Source of the DNA: a phage
Sequence record: PZ445535.1
DNA length: 44,793 nucleotides
Strand: one strand, 5' to 3'
A program made the position numbers and the translations under genes. Shown here piece after piece: positions 21,416 through 29,425 of this stretch. The notes beneath the pieces are model-generated. The model saw nothing but the letters and a program-made list of their open reading frames with translations, did no database searches and was not told where the DNA came from. Each line of letters begins with the position of its first letter. Position 1 is the stretch's first letter.

Positions 21416-23329
21416 ATGGCAGCGGGTATACTTAACGTAACAAACAATAGCAAGGCCGTAACGGGGTCGGGCACGACGTTTACGTCATTGAAAGCAGGCG
21501 ACTTTTTATCGCTGGTGGTGGGGCAAGTCCCATACACCGTAGCGATCGAATCAATCCAGAGTAACACGGCGCTTACGCTGGTGCTGCCGTTTGACGGTCC
21601 GACGTCTACCGGTCTGGCCTGGTCGTCGGTTGACCGCGATACTATGTCACTGGCTACTATGGGCGTAACCGTGCAGGCGCAGAAAGCGCTACGTCTTATG
21701 ATCGCGGACGAAAATAACTGGCGTGCAATCTTCGGTGACGCAGAGCAAATCAGCGTTACACTACCCAACGGCACCGTAATGCAAGGTATGTCGTGGGGCT
21801 ACTTGTCCAGTCTGCTTAATGACGTAGACCCCGTTGAAATGCGCAACCTGCAACAGCAGGCTGAGACTGCTAAAAACCAGGCGGTAACCGCGAAGGGGCA
21901 AGCAGAATCGGCACGCGATGCTGCTAACACCGCGAAGACTGGGGCGGAGAATGCCCGCAACCAGGCTAACAATGCTAAAACCGACGCGCAGACGGCAAAA
22001 AGGCAGGCCGAAGCCGCTCGCGATGCTGCTGTCACTGCGAAGACTGGGGCGGAGAATGCCCGCAACCAGGCGCAAGGCTACCGAGATGAGGCGGAAGGTT
22101 TTAAAAACCAGATTAACCCTGCACTATTCGTGCAGAAGTCGCAAAACCTTAATGACGTTGCCGATAAAGCAGAGGCGCGCGCTAACTTGCAAGTTTTCTT
22201 TGCATCAAACTCTAACCTGGGAACTACAGACCTCAATACGCTCGACAGCACGAAGGAAGGGCGTTATTACCAGACCACCTCGGTGAACGCGACACCCGAG
22301 CGTAACTACCCGTTTCAGGAAGCCGGTTGTCTTACCGTGTTTAAAACGGGAGGGGGTAGTGTGGAGGCTTGCATCCAGGAGTACACCACGTTTTCAAGCC
22401 TGCGTCGGTTCGTCCGTTCGCTCGCTGGGGCGGTATGGACGGCGTGGAAGGAGATCTACCTGCAAGGGTCGTCCCCGACATACGAAAATATCGACTCGAC
22501 AGGACGAGTTAGATCTGAAAAGGCATATCCAGCATTCGAGTGGGTGTCGACGAGAGTAGCCGACGATTTCATCGGTAAGCGAGTCAGCATTGAGAACGAC
22601 ACAGGCGTTAATATGAATATGTTCTTCATGCAGAAAGACACAACCGCAAACAGACGTGTCGTAGCGTTCGCAAGGCCAAACTCTACTGTTTTCCACTTCG
22701 TAGGGTATAACGGCGGGCTACCTACAGACGGCAACAGCGCCCCGTCGAATAACATTAACTTTAACACGCAACCGCAAGGATGGCGTATGGTGTCCGGCGG
22801 CTGGCAAAATGCACCGCTCGATGGGAACAACTACGGGACTTTATTCACGCAGTGTGTGCAAGGTGTGTCGCAGGGGGATTCGAAAGACAACGGTACATCT
22901 GGCTTGTGGTATTCACAGCGATATGTTAATACCGATTCTAGGGTGTTCATCCGAAATCAAACAAACAACGCAGCCTGGGGCAGGTGGTATGAATTTACTA
23001 AAACGGCAGTCTCGGATGAACGCCTGAAGAATGTAAAAGGGGATTTGAATGTTGAAGGTGCGCTCGATAACATCAACCGCATGGAATTTAAAATATTCTC
23101 GTTTAAGGATGAGAAGGCTGGGAAGGGGTATCGTCGCGGTGTTATCTCGCAGCAGATTCGCCAGATCGATAAAGAGTACACGAAGGAGATCGGCGGGTAC
23201 TATCACCTCGACCAGACACCAATGCTACTGGATGCCCTCGCGGCAATTAAGGCGTTGCGTGCGCGTGACGAGGCTAATAAAGCAGAGATTGCAGAACTGA
23301 AAGCAGCGATCGCTGAATTGAAGAAATAA
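21416..23329 (+). CDS. lateral tail fiber with C-terminal intramolecular chaperone (S74-like) domain
   Basis: 637 aa; Ala/Asn/Gln-rich coiled-coil repeats; C-terminal SDERLKN...coiled-coil tail typical of self-cleaving fiber chaperone domains; RBS AAGGAG; bidirectional terminator downstream. Confidence 0.75.
   Translation: MAAGILNVTNNSKAVTGSGTTFTSLKAGDFLSLVVGQVPYTVAIESIQSNTALTLVLPFDGPTSTGLAWSSVDRDTMSLATMGVTVQAQKALRLMIADENNWRAIFGDAEQISVTLPNGTVMQGMSWGYLSSLLNDVDPVEMRNLQQQAETAKNQAVTAKGQAESARDAANTAKTGAENARNQANNAKTDAQTAKRQAEAARDAAVTAKTGAENARNQAQGYRDEAEGFKNQINPALFVQKSQNLNDVADKAEARANLQVFFASNSNLGTTDLNTLDSTKEGRYYQTTSVNATPERNYPFQEAGCLTVFKTGGGSVEACIQEYTTFSSLRRFVRSLAGAVWTAWKEIYLQGSSPTYENIDSTGRVRSEKAYPAFEWVSTRVADDFIGKRVSIENDTGVNMNMFFMQKDTTANRRVVAFARPNSTVFHFVGYNGGLPTDGNSAPSNNINFNTQPQGWRMVSGGWQNAPLDGNNYGTLFTQCVQGVSQGDSKDNGTSGLWYSQRYVNTDSRVFIRNQTNNAAWGRWYEFTKTAVSDERLKNVKGDLNVEGALDNINRMEFKIFSFKDEKAGKGYRRGVISQQIRQIDKEYTKEIGGYYHLDQTPMLLDALAAIKALRARDEANKAEIAELKAAIAELKK
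21911..22071 (+). repeat. 105-bp in-frame tandem duplication inside tail fiber gene
   Basis: 56-nt blocks at 21911-21966 and 22016-22071 nearly identical (AGACTGGGGCGGAGAATGCCCGCAACCAGGC); encode repeated ARDAA-TAKTGAENARNQA. Confidence 0.7.
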
Positions 23330-23332
23330 AGA

Positions 23333-23356
23333 AAGGGGCCATTCGGCCCTTTTTTC
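23333..23356. terminator. bidirectional intrinsic terminator between tail fiber and minus-strand operon end
   Basis: GGGCC-ATTC-GGCCC hairpin followed by TTTTTT on plus strand and by TTTCTTTATTT on minus strand. Confidence 0.65.
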
Positions 23357-23930
23357 ATTGTGCAGATTCCCAGTCGAGTTTGCGTCGTATTGCCGGACTT
23401 TCGAAATACTCCTTGCCGTCTACTTCAACAATAGGCCAGTCATTCACAATGACGTACGGATCTGCGACCTCTTCGATTATGCCGGTGGCTTTATGTTGTC
23501 CAAACTCGACGAGCACCAGAATTACTCCGGCAACGCGGCGCTCCATGTACTCGTATGCGCAGCGCGCTTCAACCAGTCCGCGACGAATGCCGGTAGTGGC
23601 CTTCACCTCATACGACCAGACGGCATCGATAACCTGGTCTTTATAGTCTGGTCCTACTTTCACTTTGCGCTTACCCAGCATGACCACATCGCCGCGATTC
23701 ATGGTGTTACCGCTAAATAGTCCGGTGCGCTGGAGCAAGCCTTGCGGGATACAGCTACGACCTCCTGTTTGCCCTTCCAGATACATCCCTGCGAACATCT
23801 CGCCCAGTACGCCAACGAGACGGCTTTGCTTGCACGCGTCGGAACGGTTGCGCCAGTAGTCAAACTCAATGCTTGCAATCAACGATGCCAGATGAAATGC
23901 TTTGCCAGTTAATTCATATTCGCCGTACAT
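23355..23930 (-). CDS. hypothetical protein (possible PD-(D/E)xK-like)
   Basis: 191 aa; RBS AAGGAG; last gene of minus-strand operon; VIDAVWSYEVK resembles D...ExK but is unverified. Confidence 0.45.
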   Translation of the reverse strand: MYGEYELTGKAFHLASLIASIEFDYWRNRSDACKQSRLVGVLGEMFAGMYLEGQTGGRSCIPQGLLQRTGLFSGNTMNRGDVVMLGKRKVKVGPDYKDQVIDAVWSYEVKATTGIRRGLVEARCAYEYMERRVAGVILVLVEFGQHKATGIIEEVADPYVIVNDWPIVEVDGKEYFESPAIRRKLDWESAQ

Positions 23931-23974
23931 GATTAAACTCCTTCAGGTTGCGGGCCGAAGCCCGCTATTAATGA

Positions 23975-24508
23975 TTATTTAAGTGCGTTAGTCACCAGTG
24001 TTTTTTCCATCTTGCGGAAGTCGTCCAGGGTCATCCGGATTTTAGACCCATCTTCGCCGTGCAACGTAACCAGTGGTTTAGTTTTCACTAAAACACCCTC
24101 CGGCAGCTTCCACGCTTCGACAGTTTTCTTCACTGCATCCTGGAAAGCGGTTGCAGCGATCTTGCCATCCAGCTTAACCGCTACGCCCTTCAGGCTGTCA
24201 AACTGTGCTGCCGTTGTGTCGATCTGGACCTCGTCGTGCACGGTGGCGTATGACTCACCCAGTAGAGCGGCATACGCTACCAGGTCGACGATGTTGTCTT
24301 CCCGGTGCTTGCGGTGCTGGCGTACCAGCTTCAGGCAAATCAAGAAGGTCCAGGCTTCTTGCTCGGTAAGGTCGCGACCGGTAAGCGCGTTAAACACGGC
24401 GGCAATTTGTTTAGCGATGCGTTCTTCTTTCGCGTTGCCATAGCCGTTTTCTTTTCCGCGCTGTTCCATAGTGGTGGCGGCGTTTTTGCAGTATTCGAAT
24501 GCTTTCAT
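23975..24508 (-). CDS. hypothetical protein
   Basis: 177 aa from ATG 24508 (MKAFEYC...); RBS AGGAG 7 nt upstream; sigma70-like promoter and 5' stem-loop upstream. Confidence 0.5.
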   Translation of the reverse strand: MKAFEYCKNAATTMEQRGKENGYGNAKEERIAKQIAAVFNALTGRDLTEQEAWTFLICLKLVRQHRKHREDNIVDLVAYAALLGESYATVHDEVQIDTTAAQFDSLKGVAVKLDGKIAATAFQDAVKKTVEAWKLPEGVLVKTKPLVTLHGEDGSKIRMTLDDFRKMEKTLVTNALK

Positions 24509-24554
24509 GGTTTGTCTCCTTTGACGGGAGGCGGTATTGCCTCCCGATGTGGTT

Positions 24555-24583
24555 AATATAATTGGTTGCATTATTGGTTGCAA
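24555..24583 (-). promoter_or_regulatory. sigma70-like promoter (TTGCAA-N17-TATATT) with 5' stem-loop
   Basis: Minus strand: cacTTGCAAccaataatgcaaccaatTATATT; GC stem-loop CGGGAGG...CCTCCCG at 24525-24546 at predicted 5' end. Confidence 0.45.
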
Positions 24584-25041
24584 GTGAATTTTGCAAGATT
24601 CACTGAATAAATGTGCGGGACCAGTTCTTCGCACGCCCGTTTGATGGCGGCTATGTTCTTCGCGCAGTCGTCAATGATGACCAGTTCGTTAACTTCTGCG
24701 TAGCACACCAGGCCAAATACGGAACGAGCTTTATATTCCGGCGGCGGGGTGTCATCCAGCATGTGGCGCAAGAACAGACGGCCTTTCGGGAATCGGTCTA
24801 ATTGCTCTTTCGTTGTCTCCCAGCATTCAGACTGGCGGTTTGACAGGTACGCGATGTCGAAGCCCTGTTTAGCGTACATGCGCAATAACGGCAGCATGTC
24901 ATAATTAATGTCTTCGCGGACGTGGGCCTTATGCCACTTCGCCCAAAACGTTGATTTAGTCTTGATCCCCGGAACTAGGTCGTCGCGCACACTGCTTGAC
25001 CCGTTGATAACGCCATCTAAATCGCAAATCAGTAGTTTCAT
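24571..25041 (-). CDS. HAD-superfamily phosphatase-like protein
   Basis: 156 aa; HAD motif I DLDGV at residues 7-11, then YLSNR and K...IIDD motifs. Confidence 0.55.
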   Translation of the reverse strand: MKLLICDLDGVINGSSSVRDDLVPGIKTKSTFWAKWHKAHVREDINYDMLPLLRMYAKQGFDIAYLSNRQSECWETTKEQLDRFPKGRLFLRHMLDDTPPPEYKARSVFGLVCYAEVNELVIIDDCAKNIAAIKRACEELVPHIYSVNLAKFTCNQ

Positions 25042-25259
25042 TTTAATTCCGCCATTAAATTTTCACGTACAATACGGGCCGAGAATGCGTCGCACACAAG
25101 ATGGCAACGCGCCGTCATGACAAGCCAGCCAGTTAGGTCAAGGCCCAGCAATTGATGTGGTTGGCTTGCGCGCCTTACTTTATTTCCAGGGAAAACCTGG
25201 TAGCGTTTAATTATTTCATCCACGACGCGAGGACTTCGGTCGACGACTAAGATATTCAT
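25038..25259 (-). CDS. hypothetical protein
   Basis: 73 aa; RBS AAGGTG 7 nt upstream; ATGA overlap with downstream gene. Confidence 0.4.
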   Translation of the reverse strand: MNILVVDRSPRVVDEIIKRYQVFPGNKVRRASQPHQLLGLDLTGWLVMTARCHLVCDAFSARIVRENLMAELK

Positions 25260-25725
25260 TTAATTCACCTTCGCTCATTATTTCGATTTGTGCGCTGCCG
25301 TTTGGCGGCACTTCTTCAAAGATTATCAATTGCTGGCATTTGTTGTTACTCGGCCCGACCTTACCGGTGACGGCGTGTATAAACCGGATCCGCCAGTCCA
25401 GCAAAATAATCAGGTTGGCTGTTTGCCTTGCCAGTTTGGCCCACTTCGTGGTCGTATCCTGGTTGAGCAACATTACCGTTCTACGCCCCTGCGATGCGCA
25501 AGTCACCCACGGCAGCGGGTCGGAATACGGCGGATTGCACCACTTCCACCCGGTTAACTCTGACCAGTCAGCATCAAGTGCGCTGTGCTCTTTCGTGAAG
25601 TAGCGCGGTAATAGATGGTTGTGGTCGCTCGCCGCCATGTCGTAGCGGAATTTAAACGCCTTGCGCAGTGGCTTAAATAAAGCGGGCGGCGTTCGCCAGC
25701 TATCCTTCTGCTCATTCTCCGTCAT
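25216..25725 (-). CDS. DNA N6-adenine methyltransferase (phage Dam-like)
   Basis: 169 aa from ATG 25725; N-terminal WRTPPALF and catalytic NPPY motifs; start overlaps upstream gene by 14 nt (translational coupling). Confidence 0.6.
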   Translation of the reverse strand: MTENEQKDSWRTPPALFKPLRKAFKFRYDMAASDHNHLLPRYFTKEHSALDADWSELTGWKWCNPPYSDPLPWVTCASQGRRTVMLLNQDTTTKWAKLARQTANLIILLDWRIRFIHAVTGKVGPSNNKCQQLIIFEEVPPNGSAQIEIMSEGELNEYLSRRPKSSRRG

Positions 25726-26176
25726 GCTGCGGGTCCAGTGCGTAAAGTGGGATCTGTTTGGCGCTTTCCCACAGGCGTTTAATTCTTTCCTGCTCGCCTT
25801 TACCCATCTGGCGCATGTCCGTACTATAGTTGCCGTTGGTGGTGTCACGCCACGCGATCAGCACAAGGTCTTTACGGTCGATCTTCGTTGTGCGGCCTTT
25901 CGGACGGACGTATTCTTCAGCACGTTTGCAATGCTCGCGCAGGGCATCGGCGGTTAGCCGGGTGAGCGATACGGATGTTGTGTACCCGGTGCGCTGCATA
26001 ATGGTGATCAGTTCGCCCAGCAGTTCGAAGCGTTCCGCCAGTTCCTTGCGGGCCTTCTCTTCGGCTTCATAGCTTGCCAGGTAGGTATTTGCCAACGCGG
26101 TAGCGCCGTCCGCTTTCTCGCGGGCTTCAAGACACTGTGCTACCCAGTACGCTTTTTCTTCTTGTAAAATTTTCAT
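25712..26176 (-). CDS. hypothetical protein
   Basis: 154 aa; RBS GGAG 8 nt upstream; TAATG overlap with upstream gene. Confidence 0.5.
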   Translation of the reverse strand: MKILQEEKAYWVAQCLEAREKADGATALANTYLASYEAEEKARKELAERFELLGELITIMQRTGYTTSVSLTRLTADALREHCKRAEEYVRPKGRTTKIDRKDLVLIAWRDTTNGNYSTDMRQMGKGEQERIKRLWESAKQIPLYALDPQHDGE

Positions 26177-26418
26177 TATTTAGTCTCCGTCATGCGAATC
26201 TCATTTTGTGGGATAAATTTGCCGTTCATCTCTACCCAGCAGGATCCGTGCCGCCACTGGGTGTTACGACCGGTTTGCTCCGCATACACAGTCACGCATT
26301 CGTACTTCTCGAAGTGATACGTGCAGGAGGAAGGCATAATGATGCAAAAAACCACTATTAGCACCATCCACACCCATAACCGCAAATCACCGTCGTAATC
26401 TAAAAAGAATCGTTTCAT
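26176..26418 (-). CDS. small membrane protein
   Basis: 80 aa; hydrophobic segment WVWMVLIVVFCIIM; RBS GAGGA 7 nt upstream; first gene after promoter at 26465-26493. Confidence 0.45.
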   Translation of the reverse strand: MKRFFLDYDGDLRLWVWMVLIVVFCIIMPSSCTYHFEKYECVTVYAEQTGRNTQWRHGSCWVEMNGKFIPQNEIRMTETK

Positions 26419-26435
26419 CGTCAAATCCTCATATT

Positions 26436-26462
26436 AAAAAGGGCGTTCCCTTCGGAACACCC
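26436..26462 (-). terminator. intrinsic terminator overlapping transcription start of next promoter
   Basis: On minus strand GGGTGTTCC-GAAG-GGAACGCCC hairpin followed by TTTTT; lies between promoter -10 (26465-26470) and RBS of gene at 26418. Confidence 0.4.
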
Positions 26463-26464
26463 TC

Positions 26465-26493
26465 AATATAATGCAACCAATCTCGCAATGCAA
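26465..26493 (-). promoter_or_regulatory. sigma70-like promoter (TTGCAT-N17-TATATT)
   Basis: Minus strand: attggTTGCATtgcgagattggttgcatTATATT; tandem motif copies. Confidence 0.45.
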
Positions 26494-26498
26494 CCAAT

Positions 26499-26822
26499 TT
26501 ATGCAAAGAAATTTGGATCGCTCATCACATCCACAAGATAAAGGTTGTTAAGGCGGTTGCCGTAGTGGCCTGGCGTGCGCTGACGGCACACAACAGCGTA
26601 GCCCGGTGGGATGGTATTTCCGGTTGCCAGAATCCACGCCACGCGCGCGCCGTTTAGTGATTTACCGTTGTATTCGATGCGAGTGCCACCATCGGCAGTG
26701 TTAAGGCTGCCAATCTTCTTACCAGTGGAATTGAGGCGGATAACGCCGGTCTGGCTATCGTAATTAAACAGTTGTTTGGTCAGTGCTACCGAAAAATCAA
26801 TTGGTTCAAAGATAGTGTTCAT
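26499..26822 (-). CDS. HNH_3-like domain protein (possibly degenerate)
   Basis: 107 aa; FNYDSQTGVIR...GKSLNGARVAWILATG...GY pattern resembles HNH/AP2-type N-terminal domains but the usual His residues are not evident; RBS GAGGA. Confidence 0.35.
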   Translation of the reverse strand: MNTIFEPIDFSVALTKQLFNYDSQTGVIRLNSTGKKIGSLNTADGGTRIEYNGKSLNGARVAWILATGNTIPPGYAVVCRQRTPGHYGNRLNNLYLVDVMSDPNFFA

Positions 26823-27535
26823 TTTAAATTTTCCTCATTGACTGCAATCGCGAAGCCGCGCGGTGTGAGCGACCTGATTAATTTAGTGCGGGCGGACTTG
26901 CCGCCGAGCAGACTATACTGCTTGGAGTACCCTTTTTCAACGAAAACAGGTCTCTTCTCCGGCATCCTGAAGCCGTTTCCAGTCCATAAGCAAGTCAGCT
27001 TCGGGTAGGAATCACGCGCGTTGATGTATTCCGGGAATAATGGGTGCACATCGTCTTCCGGCAGGTAGCCTCCATACTCCCACGGGTTAAATGAGTGGTC
27101 TGGCTTACGCCACTGGGTGGATAGCACACTGCGCGGATTCTCTATCATGTACGGCACCTCGAAGAAGTCACCGAGAAATGCCGCAATCTTCGCTGTGCGC
27201 ACTGCCTTAAGCTGAAAGGCCGGATCTTTCGCACGCTTGCGAGGGAAGGCAGGCGCACCGCTAACCGCAAGGTCCGTACACGGCGGAAAGGCGTAAATAA
27301 TATCGGGCGTGCCAAACCCACCCGCCATAGCGCGGTCAACGAAGTCCAGATCGATAAACACGTTCTTATAGCGAATGCCGCGCCCGTAAAGCCGGTAGTG
27401 ATTGTAGGAGCCGTGGTCGGCCCCGTCGAAGTTAAAGCAGGTGCACTTATGCCCCATCTCGGCAGCACGCTCGATCATAAGGCCGCTGCCGTCGAATAAT
27501 GACCAGATGTTTAGTATCCTAACTCGCTTATTCAC
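26819..27535 (-). CDS. compact DNA (cytosine-5)-methyltransferase-like protein
   Basis: 238 aa; motif I-like LFDGSG, PC motif AFPPCTDLAVSG, ENV-like MIENPRSV; GTG start overlapping helicase stop with RBS GAGG 6 nt upstream. Confidence 0.55.
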   Translation of the reverse strand: MNKRVRILNIWSLFDGSGLMIERAAEMGHKCTCFNFDGADHGSYNHYRLYGRGIRYKNVFIDLDFVDRAMAGGFGTPDIIYAFPPCTDLAVSGAPAFPRKRAKDPAFQLKAVRTAKIAAFLGDFFEVPYMIENPRSVLSTQWRKPDHSFNPWEYGGYLPEDDVHPLFPEYINARDSYPKLTCLWTGNGFRMPEKRPVFVEKGYSKQYSLLGGKSARTKLIRSLTPRGFAIAVNEENLK

Positions 27536-28992
27536 TTACGGCCTCGCTTCTTATCTTTCATGTAGTCCATCAATTCATCCTGGATGTTGCGCTTACCATC
27601 GCGACGGCTTGCCACTAATTCGTCGAGCGTGCCGCGGGCCTGGATAATGTAGACGAATACCGGGCGAGGGTGTCCGGCCTGCATCTGGCGCACCGGTCCG
27701 ATACGTTCGACGATCTGCGCGAAGTGCTCAAAGTTCCACGTATCCGAGAAGATAGCGAGGTGGTGTCCGCCGTCCTGTAAGTTAAGACCGTGGCCTGCCG
27801 ATGCCGGGTGTGCAAACATGATCGGAATCTCGCCCCGGTTCCACGCTTCCATATCCTTAACGCCTTGCTTGCCCTTACCCATTGCGACACCCTGCGGGAA
27901 TTTCTTCTTAAGGCGGGCCAGGTCGTGCTTGTACTGGTAGGCCACAAGCAGCGGTGCGCCGTTAAGTTCTTCTACGATACTTTCCAGGGCGTCTAGTTTG
28001 GCGTCGTGGATTTTCTCCCACTCGTCGGTACGCTCTCCGTCATCATCAACCTTATATACCGCGCCAGATGCAAGCTGGAGGCATTTAATAGTCTTAGCGG
28101 CAGCGTTGGCGGCTTCTACTGTTCCGCTCTCCAGTTCTGCAAATAGCTCGCTTTCAAACTGGTCATAGATCTTGCGGGCTTTCTTAGGCAGGTCAACCAG
28201 TACCGGCGTATAGATCGGCTTGTCGCAACCGAAGTATTCAGCCGCGTCAACGGTTAGCGAAATGTCAGCCAGCTTTGCGTGAATCTCTTTTTCGGAGTTT
28301 TTCAGCGGGGCGTGCTGCATAGTGAAGCTGCCAGGTGCAACCGGCTTACTGATAAACCAGCGGTCGGTGAATGCCTTATAGCTACTGCCGAGGCGTTCGC
28401 CACCGTCAACAAACCAGTTTTGCCCCCACACGTCCTTAAGCCCGTTTGGTGCTGGCGTGCCTGTCAGGTTAATCCAGCGCTTGACGTGCTTATGTGCGAT
28501 CGCCGCCAGGGCGCGGGCGCGTTTGCTACCCTGCTTGCTGCGGTAGCCTTTCAGCTTAGTCGATTCATCGGCAACTACGACCGTAAAAGGCCACTCATCG
28601 CCGCAATAGTTCACAAGCCACTCAACTACATCATAATTGACACACACGACGTTAGCGCCGCTCTCAAGCGCTGTAATGCGGTCCTTCTCTGGTCCAGTGC
28701 CGTCTACTACCTGAAGCGATGAGAAGCCCCATTTATCCTGTTCCGGGGGCCACGTACCGGACGCAACGCGCAGCGGGGCAAGCACCAGCACGCGGTCTTC
28801 TCCGTGATTCAGGATGCCGGTCTGGAACATCTTGTTTAGCGCCCACATGGTAGCGCCGGTCTTTCCCGATCCCATAGTCGCCCAAATATTACAGCGGGCG
28901 TGTTTAATGATGAAAGACGTGATTAACTTCTGGTACTCGCGCCTGCGAAAACGTGCCATCTTGTTACGCCTTTTTCCAGACTTCTGTTTCAT
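27532..28992 (-). CDS. SNF2-family ATP-dependent helicase
   Basis: 486 aa from ATG 28992 (RBS GAGGAA); Walker A MGSGKTG, motif II VVADEST, SNF2-type LTGTPAPN. Confidence 0.75.
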   Translation of the reverse strand: MKQKSGKRRNKMARFRRREYQKLITSFIIKHARCNIWATMGSGKTGATMWALNKMFQTGILNHGEDRVLVLAPLRVASGTWPPEQDKWGFSSLQVVDGTGPEKDRITALESGANVVCVNYDVVEWLVNYCGDEWPFTVVVADESTKLKGYRSKQGSKRARALAAIAHKHVKRWINLTGTPAPNGLKDVWGQNWFVDGGERLGSSYKAFTDRWFISKPVAPGSFTMQHAPLKNSEKEIHAKLADISLTVDAAEYFGCDKPIYTPVLVDLPKKARKIYDQFESELFAELESGTVEAANAAAKTIKCLQLASGAVYKVDDDGERTDEWEKIHDAKLDALESIVEELNGAPLLVAYQYKHDLARLKKKFPQGVAMGKGKQGVKDMEAWNRGEIPIMFAHPASAGHGLNLQDGGHHLAIFSDTWNFEHFAQIVERIGPVRQMQAGHPRPVFVYIIQARGTLDELVASRRDGKRNIQDELMDYMKDKKRGRK

Positions 28993-29179
28993 GGTGCCAA
29001 TTCCTCGTCGTAGCGGTCCAGTTAAACTCATGCCCTACATGCACACCGGTCGCCCGGAATCCTTTAAACTTCTGCCAGCACACGGTCAACGGCAGCGGTT
29101 CGCGCATTGCTGCGATATACCATACGCGATCGCCTGGTTTGCAGTCGCCCAGTGTGGTAAGGCGGTAATGTTCTTTCAT
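28964..29179 (-). CDS. hypothetical protein
   Basis: 71 aa from ATG 29179 (MKEHYRL...); RBS GGAGA 8 nt upstream; follows an intrinsic terminator; overlaps helicase start. Confidence 0.4.
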   Translation of the reverse strand: MKEHYRLTTLGDCKPGDRVWYIAAMREPLPLTVCWQKFKGFRATGVHVGHEFNWTATTRNWHHETEVWKKA

Positions 29180-29221: not shown

Positions 29222-29395
29222 TCATTCGCGTTCTTCACGATAGCGGCGCTGCCGTTCTCGTTCGGCCTTGTTCCGGCACGATTTACACTGCGCGCGATAC
29301 CCATCCGGGCTACGTGCTGTTTTGCCAGTGTACTTATGAAATTGCGATAGCGGTTTAACACAGCCGCATTGGCTGCAACGTTTTTCTTCAATCAT
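29222..29395 (-). CDS. zinc-ribbon protein
   Basis: 57 aa from ATG 29395; CSQCGC...CKSC two CxxC pairs; basic C-terminus; RBS GAGG 8 nt upstream. Confidence 0.45.
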   Translation of the reverse strand: MIEEKRCSQCGCVKPLSQFHKYTGKTARSPDGYRAQCKSCRNKAERERQRRYREERE

Positions 29396-29425
29396 TTTAT
29401 ATGCCTCGTTAGTCCTAACCTGCAC

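Follow-up and report, generated by a model that had tools for sequence, protein, structure and literature searches.

Phage K42 (95% identity to KarlJaspers/Bas06) carries a 711-bp dcm gene that was disrupted in all of its escapers of retron Ec86; expression of K42 Dcm, which works alone from a plasmid, is toxic only when the retron is present (Wang et al., bioRxiv, 10.1101/2023.08.16.553469). As measured by mass spectrometry coupled to liquid chromatography (LC-MS), K42 Dcm raises 5-methylcytosine (5mC) on the multicopy single-stranded DNA (msDNA) of Ec86; the C82A/E128A/K175A/K176A mutant is inactive and gives no such rise; and mutation of either C of the CCTGG sequence in the msDNA abolishes Ec86 defence against K42 (Wang et al., 10.1101/2023.08.16.553469). 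Here we analyze a related gene in the phage sequence PZ445535.1, a stretch of 44,793 nucleotides (the window) that represents an essentially complete siphophage genome of ~45 kb from an ordinary Escherichia coli phage of the genus Dhillonvirus. The gene encodes a protein of 238 amino acids (aa), and a Dam-family methyltransferase is encoded on the same strand. We consider it quite probable that these are two independent orphan methyltransferases (MTases), a mini C5-cytosine methyltransferase (C5-MTase) producing 5mC, probably at or near CCWGG, and a Dam enzyme, both likely pre-empting host restriction.

Relation to K42 Dcm and distribution of the family

The KarlJaspers protein bas06_0055 (711 bp, 236 aa) agrees in length with the K42 dcm gene as published, and its K42 version is nearly identical to it. 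The 238-aa protein of the window is 54% identical to it over the full length (E = 9e-87), and Cys82, Glu128 and Lys175 of bas06_0055 align with Cys86, Glu132 and Lys179, while Lys176 of K42 Dcm corresponds to Leu180. Both are orphan phage genes of the same family. They differ in the host genome, K42 and KarlJaspers belonging to Drexlerviridae and the present phage to Dhillonvirus, and in the sequence and length of the short segment that stands in the place of a target-recognition domain (mini-TRD).

The family is large. It has 1482 homologues in a large protein database, almost all of those listed being ~225-260 aa long, and 809 representatives of clusters at 50% identity, nearly all full-length representatives listed falling at ~210-260 aa. 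Members are found in 1515 of 50,697 phage records, with genomes from ~40 kb to ~170 kb and with Escherichia, Klebsiella, Salmonella, Shigella and others as hosts. The 238-aa protein belongs to phrog_757, as seen from full-length homology, the typical length (~225-260 aa) and the conserved PPC, ENP and K-x-T motifs. BASEL phage records already name the family 'Dcm-like C5 cytosine methyltransferase'. An earlier, sequence-only reading of this DNA had described the protein as unusually small; among phages that description does not hold, given the same ~230-aa architecture in so many records. Shortness is a trait of the family, and of an active enzyme within it, and no anomaly of this protein, since the KarlJaspers/K42 homologue has nearly the same length and is active. 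The same reading was right to consider it an orphan methylase, as the screen of neighbouring genes (Pfam, PHROG, and NCBIfam scans) turned up no obvious restriction partner. The 238-aa protein thus represents no new system; the orphan phage methylases to which it belongs are a known family.

Within Dhillonvirus, the proteins annotated as 'C-5 cytosine-specific DNA methylase' or, in BASEL records, as 'Dcm-like C5 cytosine methyltransferase' (e.g., in phages jat, Over9000, GeorgBuechner, and Oekolampad) are 92-98% identical to it and occupy the same genomic position. The relatives share the HNH-like gene downstream, and the upstream helicase is seen here and in JohannBuxtorf_Bas84 (Bas84). Compared with these annotated relatives there is essentially no difference, and the phage is another isolate of the same genus.

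Two relatives carry altered copies. The dcm-like gene of Bas84 (PQ850611.1; L001 4728-5367, minus strand) is annotated as two 'DNA methyltransferase' coding sequences, and a frameshifting deletion removes the loop directly after PPC, making it a natural pseudogene; this would fit with selection against the gene by defences that sense methylation, retron Eco1 being an example. In Shigella phage 1b (OR420686.2, 36538-36708), the match is confined to the final 57 residues of the dcm-like protein and lies beside a 'putative homing endonuclease', which suggests an insertion disrupting the gene.

Catalytic motifs and predicted fold

The open reading frame (ORF) of the 238-aa protein begins with GTG, with AGG 7 nt upstream. 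The C5-MTase motifs I, IV, and VI that had been read from the sequence are all present. Motif I, FDGSG (residues 14-18; F14, G16, G18), follows the pattern F-x-G-x-G; G16, S17, and G18 are invariant among the 31 closest homologues, and the wider family is looser (LFDxTG). Motif IV is PPC (84-86), with the Pro-Cys pair and the catalytic Cys86 (codon 27278-27280). Motif VI is ENP (132-134; Glu132 codon 27140-27142), a nearly invariant Val-to-Pro variant of E-N-V. In 56 diverse family members, F83, P84, C86, E132, N133, K179, and T181 are conserved in at least 90%, and P134 is invariant.

Profile searches, which had been suggested for this protein, gave a divided answer: it matches the PHROG 'DNA methyltransferase' family (Table 1), but it has no match to PF00145 even at E ≤ 10 and none to any Pfam or NCBIfam family. 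No C5-MTase was found in the PDB by phmmer or hmmsearch with the single sequence or with the 31- and 56-sequence profiles, the matches being spurious only (ToxD kinase, SDR proteins). In hhalign comparisons the family profile aligned with M.HhaI, in a hand-entered sequence, at E = 0.0026 over motifs I-IV only, and with E. coli Dcm, weakly, at E = 0.18 over the motif I-IV region only. The link to C5-MTases was made solely through structure comparison and the homologue from the literature.

The protein has the C5-MTase catalytic-domain fold, and its modelled architecture is closest to the catalytic domain of DNMT3. Sequence identity to the catalytic domains of DNMT3A and DNMT3B is only 13-18%; the phage protein is ~50 residues shorter and is without the DNMT3 regulatory domains. 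The stretch after PPC (approximately residues 81-100) is of low confidence (block pLDDT ~70) and is likely a mobile catalytic loop, as far as the model goes.

The protein had been called too short for a normal target-recognition domain (TRD), and this is borne out: between GNGF (186-189) and TPR (224-226) there are only ~36-40 residues, the range in the family being 32-53, and a TRD of at least 80 residues between motifs VIII and IX is absent. The corresponding span has ~100 residues in DNMT3A and ~140 in M.HhaI. Compared with the canonical C5-MTases (M.HhaI, M.HaeIII; PF00145), the TRD is cut to ~36 residues and the Pfam model is blind to the protein; E. coli Dcm (M.EcoKDcm) has 472 aa, so that the phage protein is about half its length. 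Its fold is that of a C5-MTase, and its target-recognition region is drastically reduced in length.

Target-recognition segment

The mini-TRD, approximately residues 190-225 (26860-26966, minus strand), is basic (...LGGKSARTKLIRS), and the basic stretch LGGKSxRTKxIRS with which it ends is invariant. Towards its centre the family varies more than anywhere else, and sequence classes can be recognised in the segment ('GYSxQ', 'DNPGW', and others); to judge from the alignment, this is behaviour that would be expected of a recognition element. The 238-aa protein belongs to the 'GYSxQ' class ('GYSKQY'), while K42/Bas06 belong to the 'DNPGW' class and are 2 residues longer there.

Indirect support for a CCWGG target comes from Klebsiella phage KP36, which encodes a 43%-identical member of the family (JF501022.1, 47558-48229) annotated 'hypothetical protein'. 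KP36 DNA, with 155 CCWGG sites, is completely resistant to EcoRII; the authors of the 2013 paper credited the host Dcm because they recognised no phage cytosine methylase (PMC3620542). More generally, neither Pfam nor NCBIfam picks up the family, and its members are therefore often labelled 'hypothetical', as here. No mapped methylome for Dhillonvirus or Drexlerviridae was found in the literature.

The frequencies of some other sites in the window are low. Several 6-bp palindromes are much rarer than the Markov expectation (GATATC, 0 vs. 11.4; GAATTC, 2 vs. 8.1; CTGCAG, 4 vs. 14.6), and GGCC (0.68) and CTAG (0.25) are low as well; this scarcity suggests restriction-site avoidance alongside methylation.

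Proposed activity and alternative explanations

If the 238-aa protein and Dam are two independent orphan methyltransferases, the chemistry of C5-MTases lets us outline how the former would act. S-adenosylmethionine (SAM) would bind through FDGSG; Cys86 would attack C6 of the flipped-out cytosine; Glu132 together with Lys179 would keep the base in place for methyl transfer to C5; and the basic segment of ~36 residues (190-225) would replace the usual TRD of 80-140 residues. By analogy with the homologue, for which it was shown, the enzyme would deposit 5mC on DNA inside the cell, that of the phage included, the sites probably being of the Dcm type or close to it. Both methylases most likely act ahead of host restriction enzymes that are blocked by 5mC or by adenine marks. 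The cost would be that retron Ec86/Eco1 is able to sense the cytosine methylase, and the presence of the gene predicts sensitivity of a phage to this retron. For a coliphage genus that has been sampled well, the pair of orphan methylases would explain a part of the anti-restriction repertoire and is a matter of routine annotation. BASEL phenotyping did not tie resistance to restriction in any simple way to these methylase genes (PMC8594841).

Several observations weigh against this reading. The experimental basis is K42 Dcm, the Dhillonvirus members being known by sequence alone. For K42 Dcm itself, CCWGG was assumed from E. coli Dcm and is unmapped, and the strain used for the assays, MG1655, is dcm+ (Wang et al., 10.1101/2023.08.16.553469). 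Because the mini-TRDs of the 238-aa protein and of K42/Bas06 fall into different classes, the target sequence may differ; the EcoRII resistance of KP36 could come from the host Dcm; and the observed/expected ratios of CCWGG (0.91) and GATC (0.80) in the window show no striking depletion or enrichment. On the catalytic side, motif VIII (Q-x-R-x-R) is replaced by P-K179-L-T181-C-L-W at what appears to be the corresponding strand, with K179 and T181 conserved instead; the canonical motif X (G-N) is not present as such, R226-G-F (226-228) opening the C-terminal helix; and PF00145 is reached by only 2 of the 56 family members (best E = 0.0039).

The divergent mini-TRD and the unmapped specificity of K42 Dcm speak for an active C5-MTase with a site other than CCWGG or with relaxed specificity (e.g., a 2-3-bp site), which we hold to be possible, if on the unlikely side. 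The recognition segment of ~36 residues, apart from being hypervariable and different from that of the tested homologue, would be too small for readout of 5 bp by a monomer, and DNMT3A/B, nearest to the protein in structure, recognise no site but CpG and bind DNA as a dimer. On the other hand, the loss of Ec86 defence against K42 when either C of the msDNA CCTGG is mutated, and the resistance of KP36 DNA to EcoRII, both argue for CCWGG. Related phages were propagated on MG1655, according to the hosts listed in the phage records; MG1655 carries McrBC, under which frequent RmC methylation should be costly, so that abundant methylation of this kind would not be expected.

A further suggestion, which we make tentatively and with still less confidence, is that the hypervariable segment of 32-53 residues is a minimal swappable recognition module, or else that DNMT3-like dimerisation is needed, and that phage lineages, Dhillonvirus among them, methylate different short motifs instead of all imitating the host Dcm. 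If that reading holds, no natural C5-cytosine DNA methyltransferase architecture known to us would be smaller than that of the mini-Dcm family.

The non-canonical motifs VIII and X, together with the absence of a Pfam, NCBIfam or PDB sequence match and the broken copy in at least one relative (Bas84), could be taken to mean that the 238-aa protein is a relic that has lost catalysis, or that it binds DNA or SAM but is no transferase. We find this very improbable, as the catalytic Cys, ENP, and the motif I glycines are conserved and the 54%-identical homologue is active in dependence on those residues.

Hardly any more credible is transfer of a group other than methyl (e.g., carboxymethyl from Cx-SAM, as by phage CmoX), or action mainly on a non-duplex substrate. 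The sequence-only reading had raised a non-canonical substrate. The homologue makes ordinary 5mC, detected as such by LC-MS (Wang et al., 10.1101/2023.08.16.553469), so that a non-canonical product is not indicated. No phage cmoA or amide-ligase gene is seen among the neighbouring genes, and any equivalence of R226 with R350 of CmoX is putative. DNMT3A, which we take to have the sequence GRSW and hence an Arg at a position like that of R226, is a SAM user.

Finally, a phage methylase/nuclease pair, in which the HNH-like nuclease would hit unmethylated host DNA while phage DNA is protected, may be dismissed as highly unlikely: the two genes overlap by 4 nt and adjoin in the annotated records listed, but in Bas84 the HNH-like gene persists beside a broken dcm, and the evidence for HNH is weak.

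The Dam-family methyltransferase

The sequence-only reading of a Dam-type enzyme is confirmed by the match to PF05869 (128.2 bits, cutoff 28.1; Table 1) and to phrog_111 (E = 8e-54). The ORF extends over 25216-25848 from a GTG, the likely true start being the ATG at 25725, which gives the 169-aa form annotated in Bas84; in it, WRTPPALF occupies residues 10-17 and NPPY residues 64-67. The protein shares the Pfam match, NPPY, and the small size with the phage Dam family (T1, VT-2/933W Dam). It differs from these Dams in being only 30% identical to the Dam-like protein of the T1-like phage KarlJaspers and in scoring below the cutoff of the NCBIfam equivalog TIGR01712 (89.2 bits vs. 97.05). The Dam enzymes of T1 and VT-2 are characterised, and the specificity for GATC is taken from them; by family membership, the enzyme presumably methylates adenine at GATC, of which there are 155 sites in the window.

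Gene order and neighbouring genes

All four genes named by the sequence-only reading, for the mini C5-MTase, Dam, HAD, and HNH-like proteins, are on the minus strand where it had placed them (Table 1). Over 23300-29100, identity reaches 92% with Dhillonvirus LM40P1 and 80-87% with many named Escherichia phages (Ioannina, JohannBuxtorf_Bas84, JLBYU37, SECphi4, Envy, and others), and the gene block is covered by at least 80% in 105 phage records; this, together with the homologues of the 238-aa protein in the database, shows that the ORFs are real genes and not chance. The block is part of the early/DNA-metabolism gene set of Dhillonvirus.

Table 1. Genes and other features of the methyltransferase region, in the order of transcription of the minus strand
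Feature	Coordinates	Strand	Evidence
SNF2-family helicase, 499 aa	27532-29031	minus	PF00176 E=3.7e-9; phrog_62 E=3e-154
Mini C5-cytosine DNA methyltransferase, 238 aa	26819-27535	minus	phrog_757 'DNA methyltransferase' E=4.8e-80
HNH/I-HmuI-like protein, 107 aa	26499-26822	minus	phrog_99 E=3e-14
Terminator-like hairpin, 11-bp stem then T-run	26464-26439	minus	consensus scan only
Conserved hypothetical, 82 aa, hydrophobic N-terminal segment	26176-26424	minus	phrog_18961 E=1.4e-43
Conserved protein, 154 aa, PHROG label 'DNA ligase'	25712-26176	minus	phrog_10530 E=1.6e-79
Dam-family N6-adenine DNA methyltransferase, 169 aa	25216-25725	minus	PF05869 E=3.3e-37
Conserved hypothetical between HAD and Dam genes, 73 aa	25038-25259	minus	phrog_10685 E=1.9e-41
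HAD-superfamily phosphatase, 156 aa	24571-25041	minus	phrog_415 E=3.3e-31
DUF6378 protein, 177 aa	23975-24508	minus	family scan, start choice

The start of the dcm-like gene overlaps the helicase stop, and the start of the HNH-like gene the dcm-like stop, by 4 nt each, and these successive overlaps suggest translational coupling of the three genes. The terminator-like hairpin sits between them and the dam and HAD genes; it is a call of the consensus scan, and the count of terminators in the region is no higher than the shuffled expectation.

The four genes had been put forward as a module. In KarlJaspers, however, the dam and dcm genes are ~6 kb apart and on opposite strands; K42 Dcm acts alone from a plasmid; in Bas84 the neighbours, including the HNH-like gene, are retained beside the frameshifted dcm; and here the hairpin separates the two gene sets. 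A functional four-gene module is accordingly rejected on the arrangement in KarlJaspers and the hairpin: the genes are neighbours, not a demonstrated functional module, the HAD and HNH-like genes being conserved neighbours.

In the HAD protein the four motifs of a HAD phosphatase, as originally proposed, are readable (DLDGV, 7-11; S67 in LSNR, 66-69; K104 in EYKAR, 102-106; D124-D125 in IDD, 123-125). Its Pfam matches are all sub-threshold, the best being Acid_phosphat_B (22.1 bits vs. 27), and it resembles the phosphatase domain of polynucleotide kinase/phosphatase, with no P-loop kinase domain. For the 107-aa protein that had been called HNH_3-like, the ORF stands, but the resemblance to HNH is weak; nuclease activity is doubtful, because no helix is predicted after the beta-hairpin. 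The protein is confined to Dhillonvirus, its gene occurring in 162 phage records, almost all of them named Escherichia, Shigella or Dhillonvirus phages. For the Dam, HAD, and HNH-like proteins, sequence searches of the PDB yielded nothing or spurious matches.

The 'DNA ligase' label of the 154-aa protein, which has passed into GenBank annotations (e.g., Bas84), looks wrong: the protein is far too small for a ligase and has no significant Pfam or NCBIfam match. A Cys-rich ORF of 67 aa (29222-29425, minus strand) matches phrog_5558 'Lar-like restriction alleviation protein' (E = 2e-16) and also endonuclease VII/HNH zinc-ribbon families, so that the anti-restriction label is uncertain. The PHROGs matched by the DUF6378 protein (phrog_474, phrog_1167) carry the label 'phosphofructokinase'; the mechanical start of the DUF6378 gene, GTG at 24634, runs into the HAD gene, while the ATG at 24508, with GGAG upstream, fits the annotated length in relatives.

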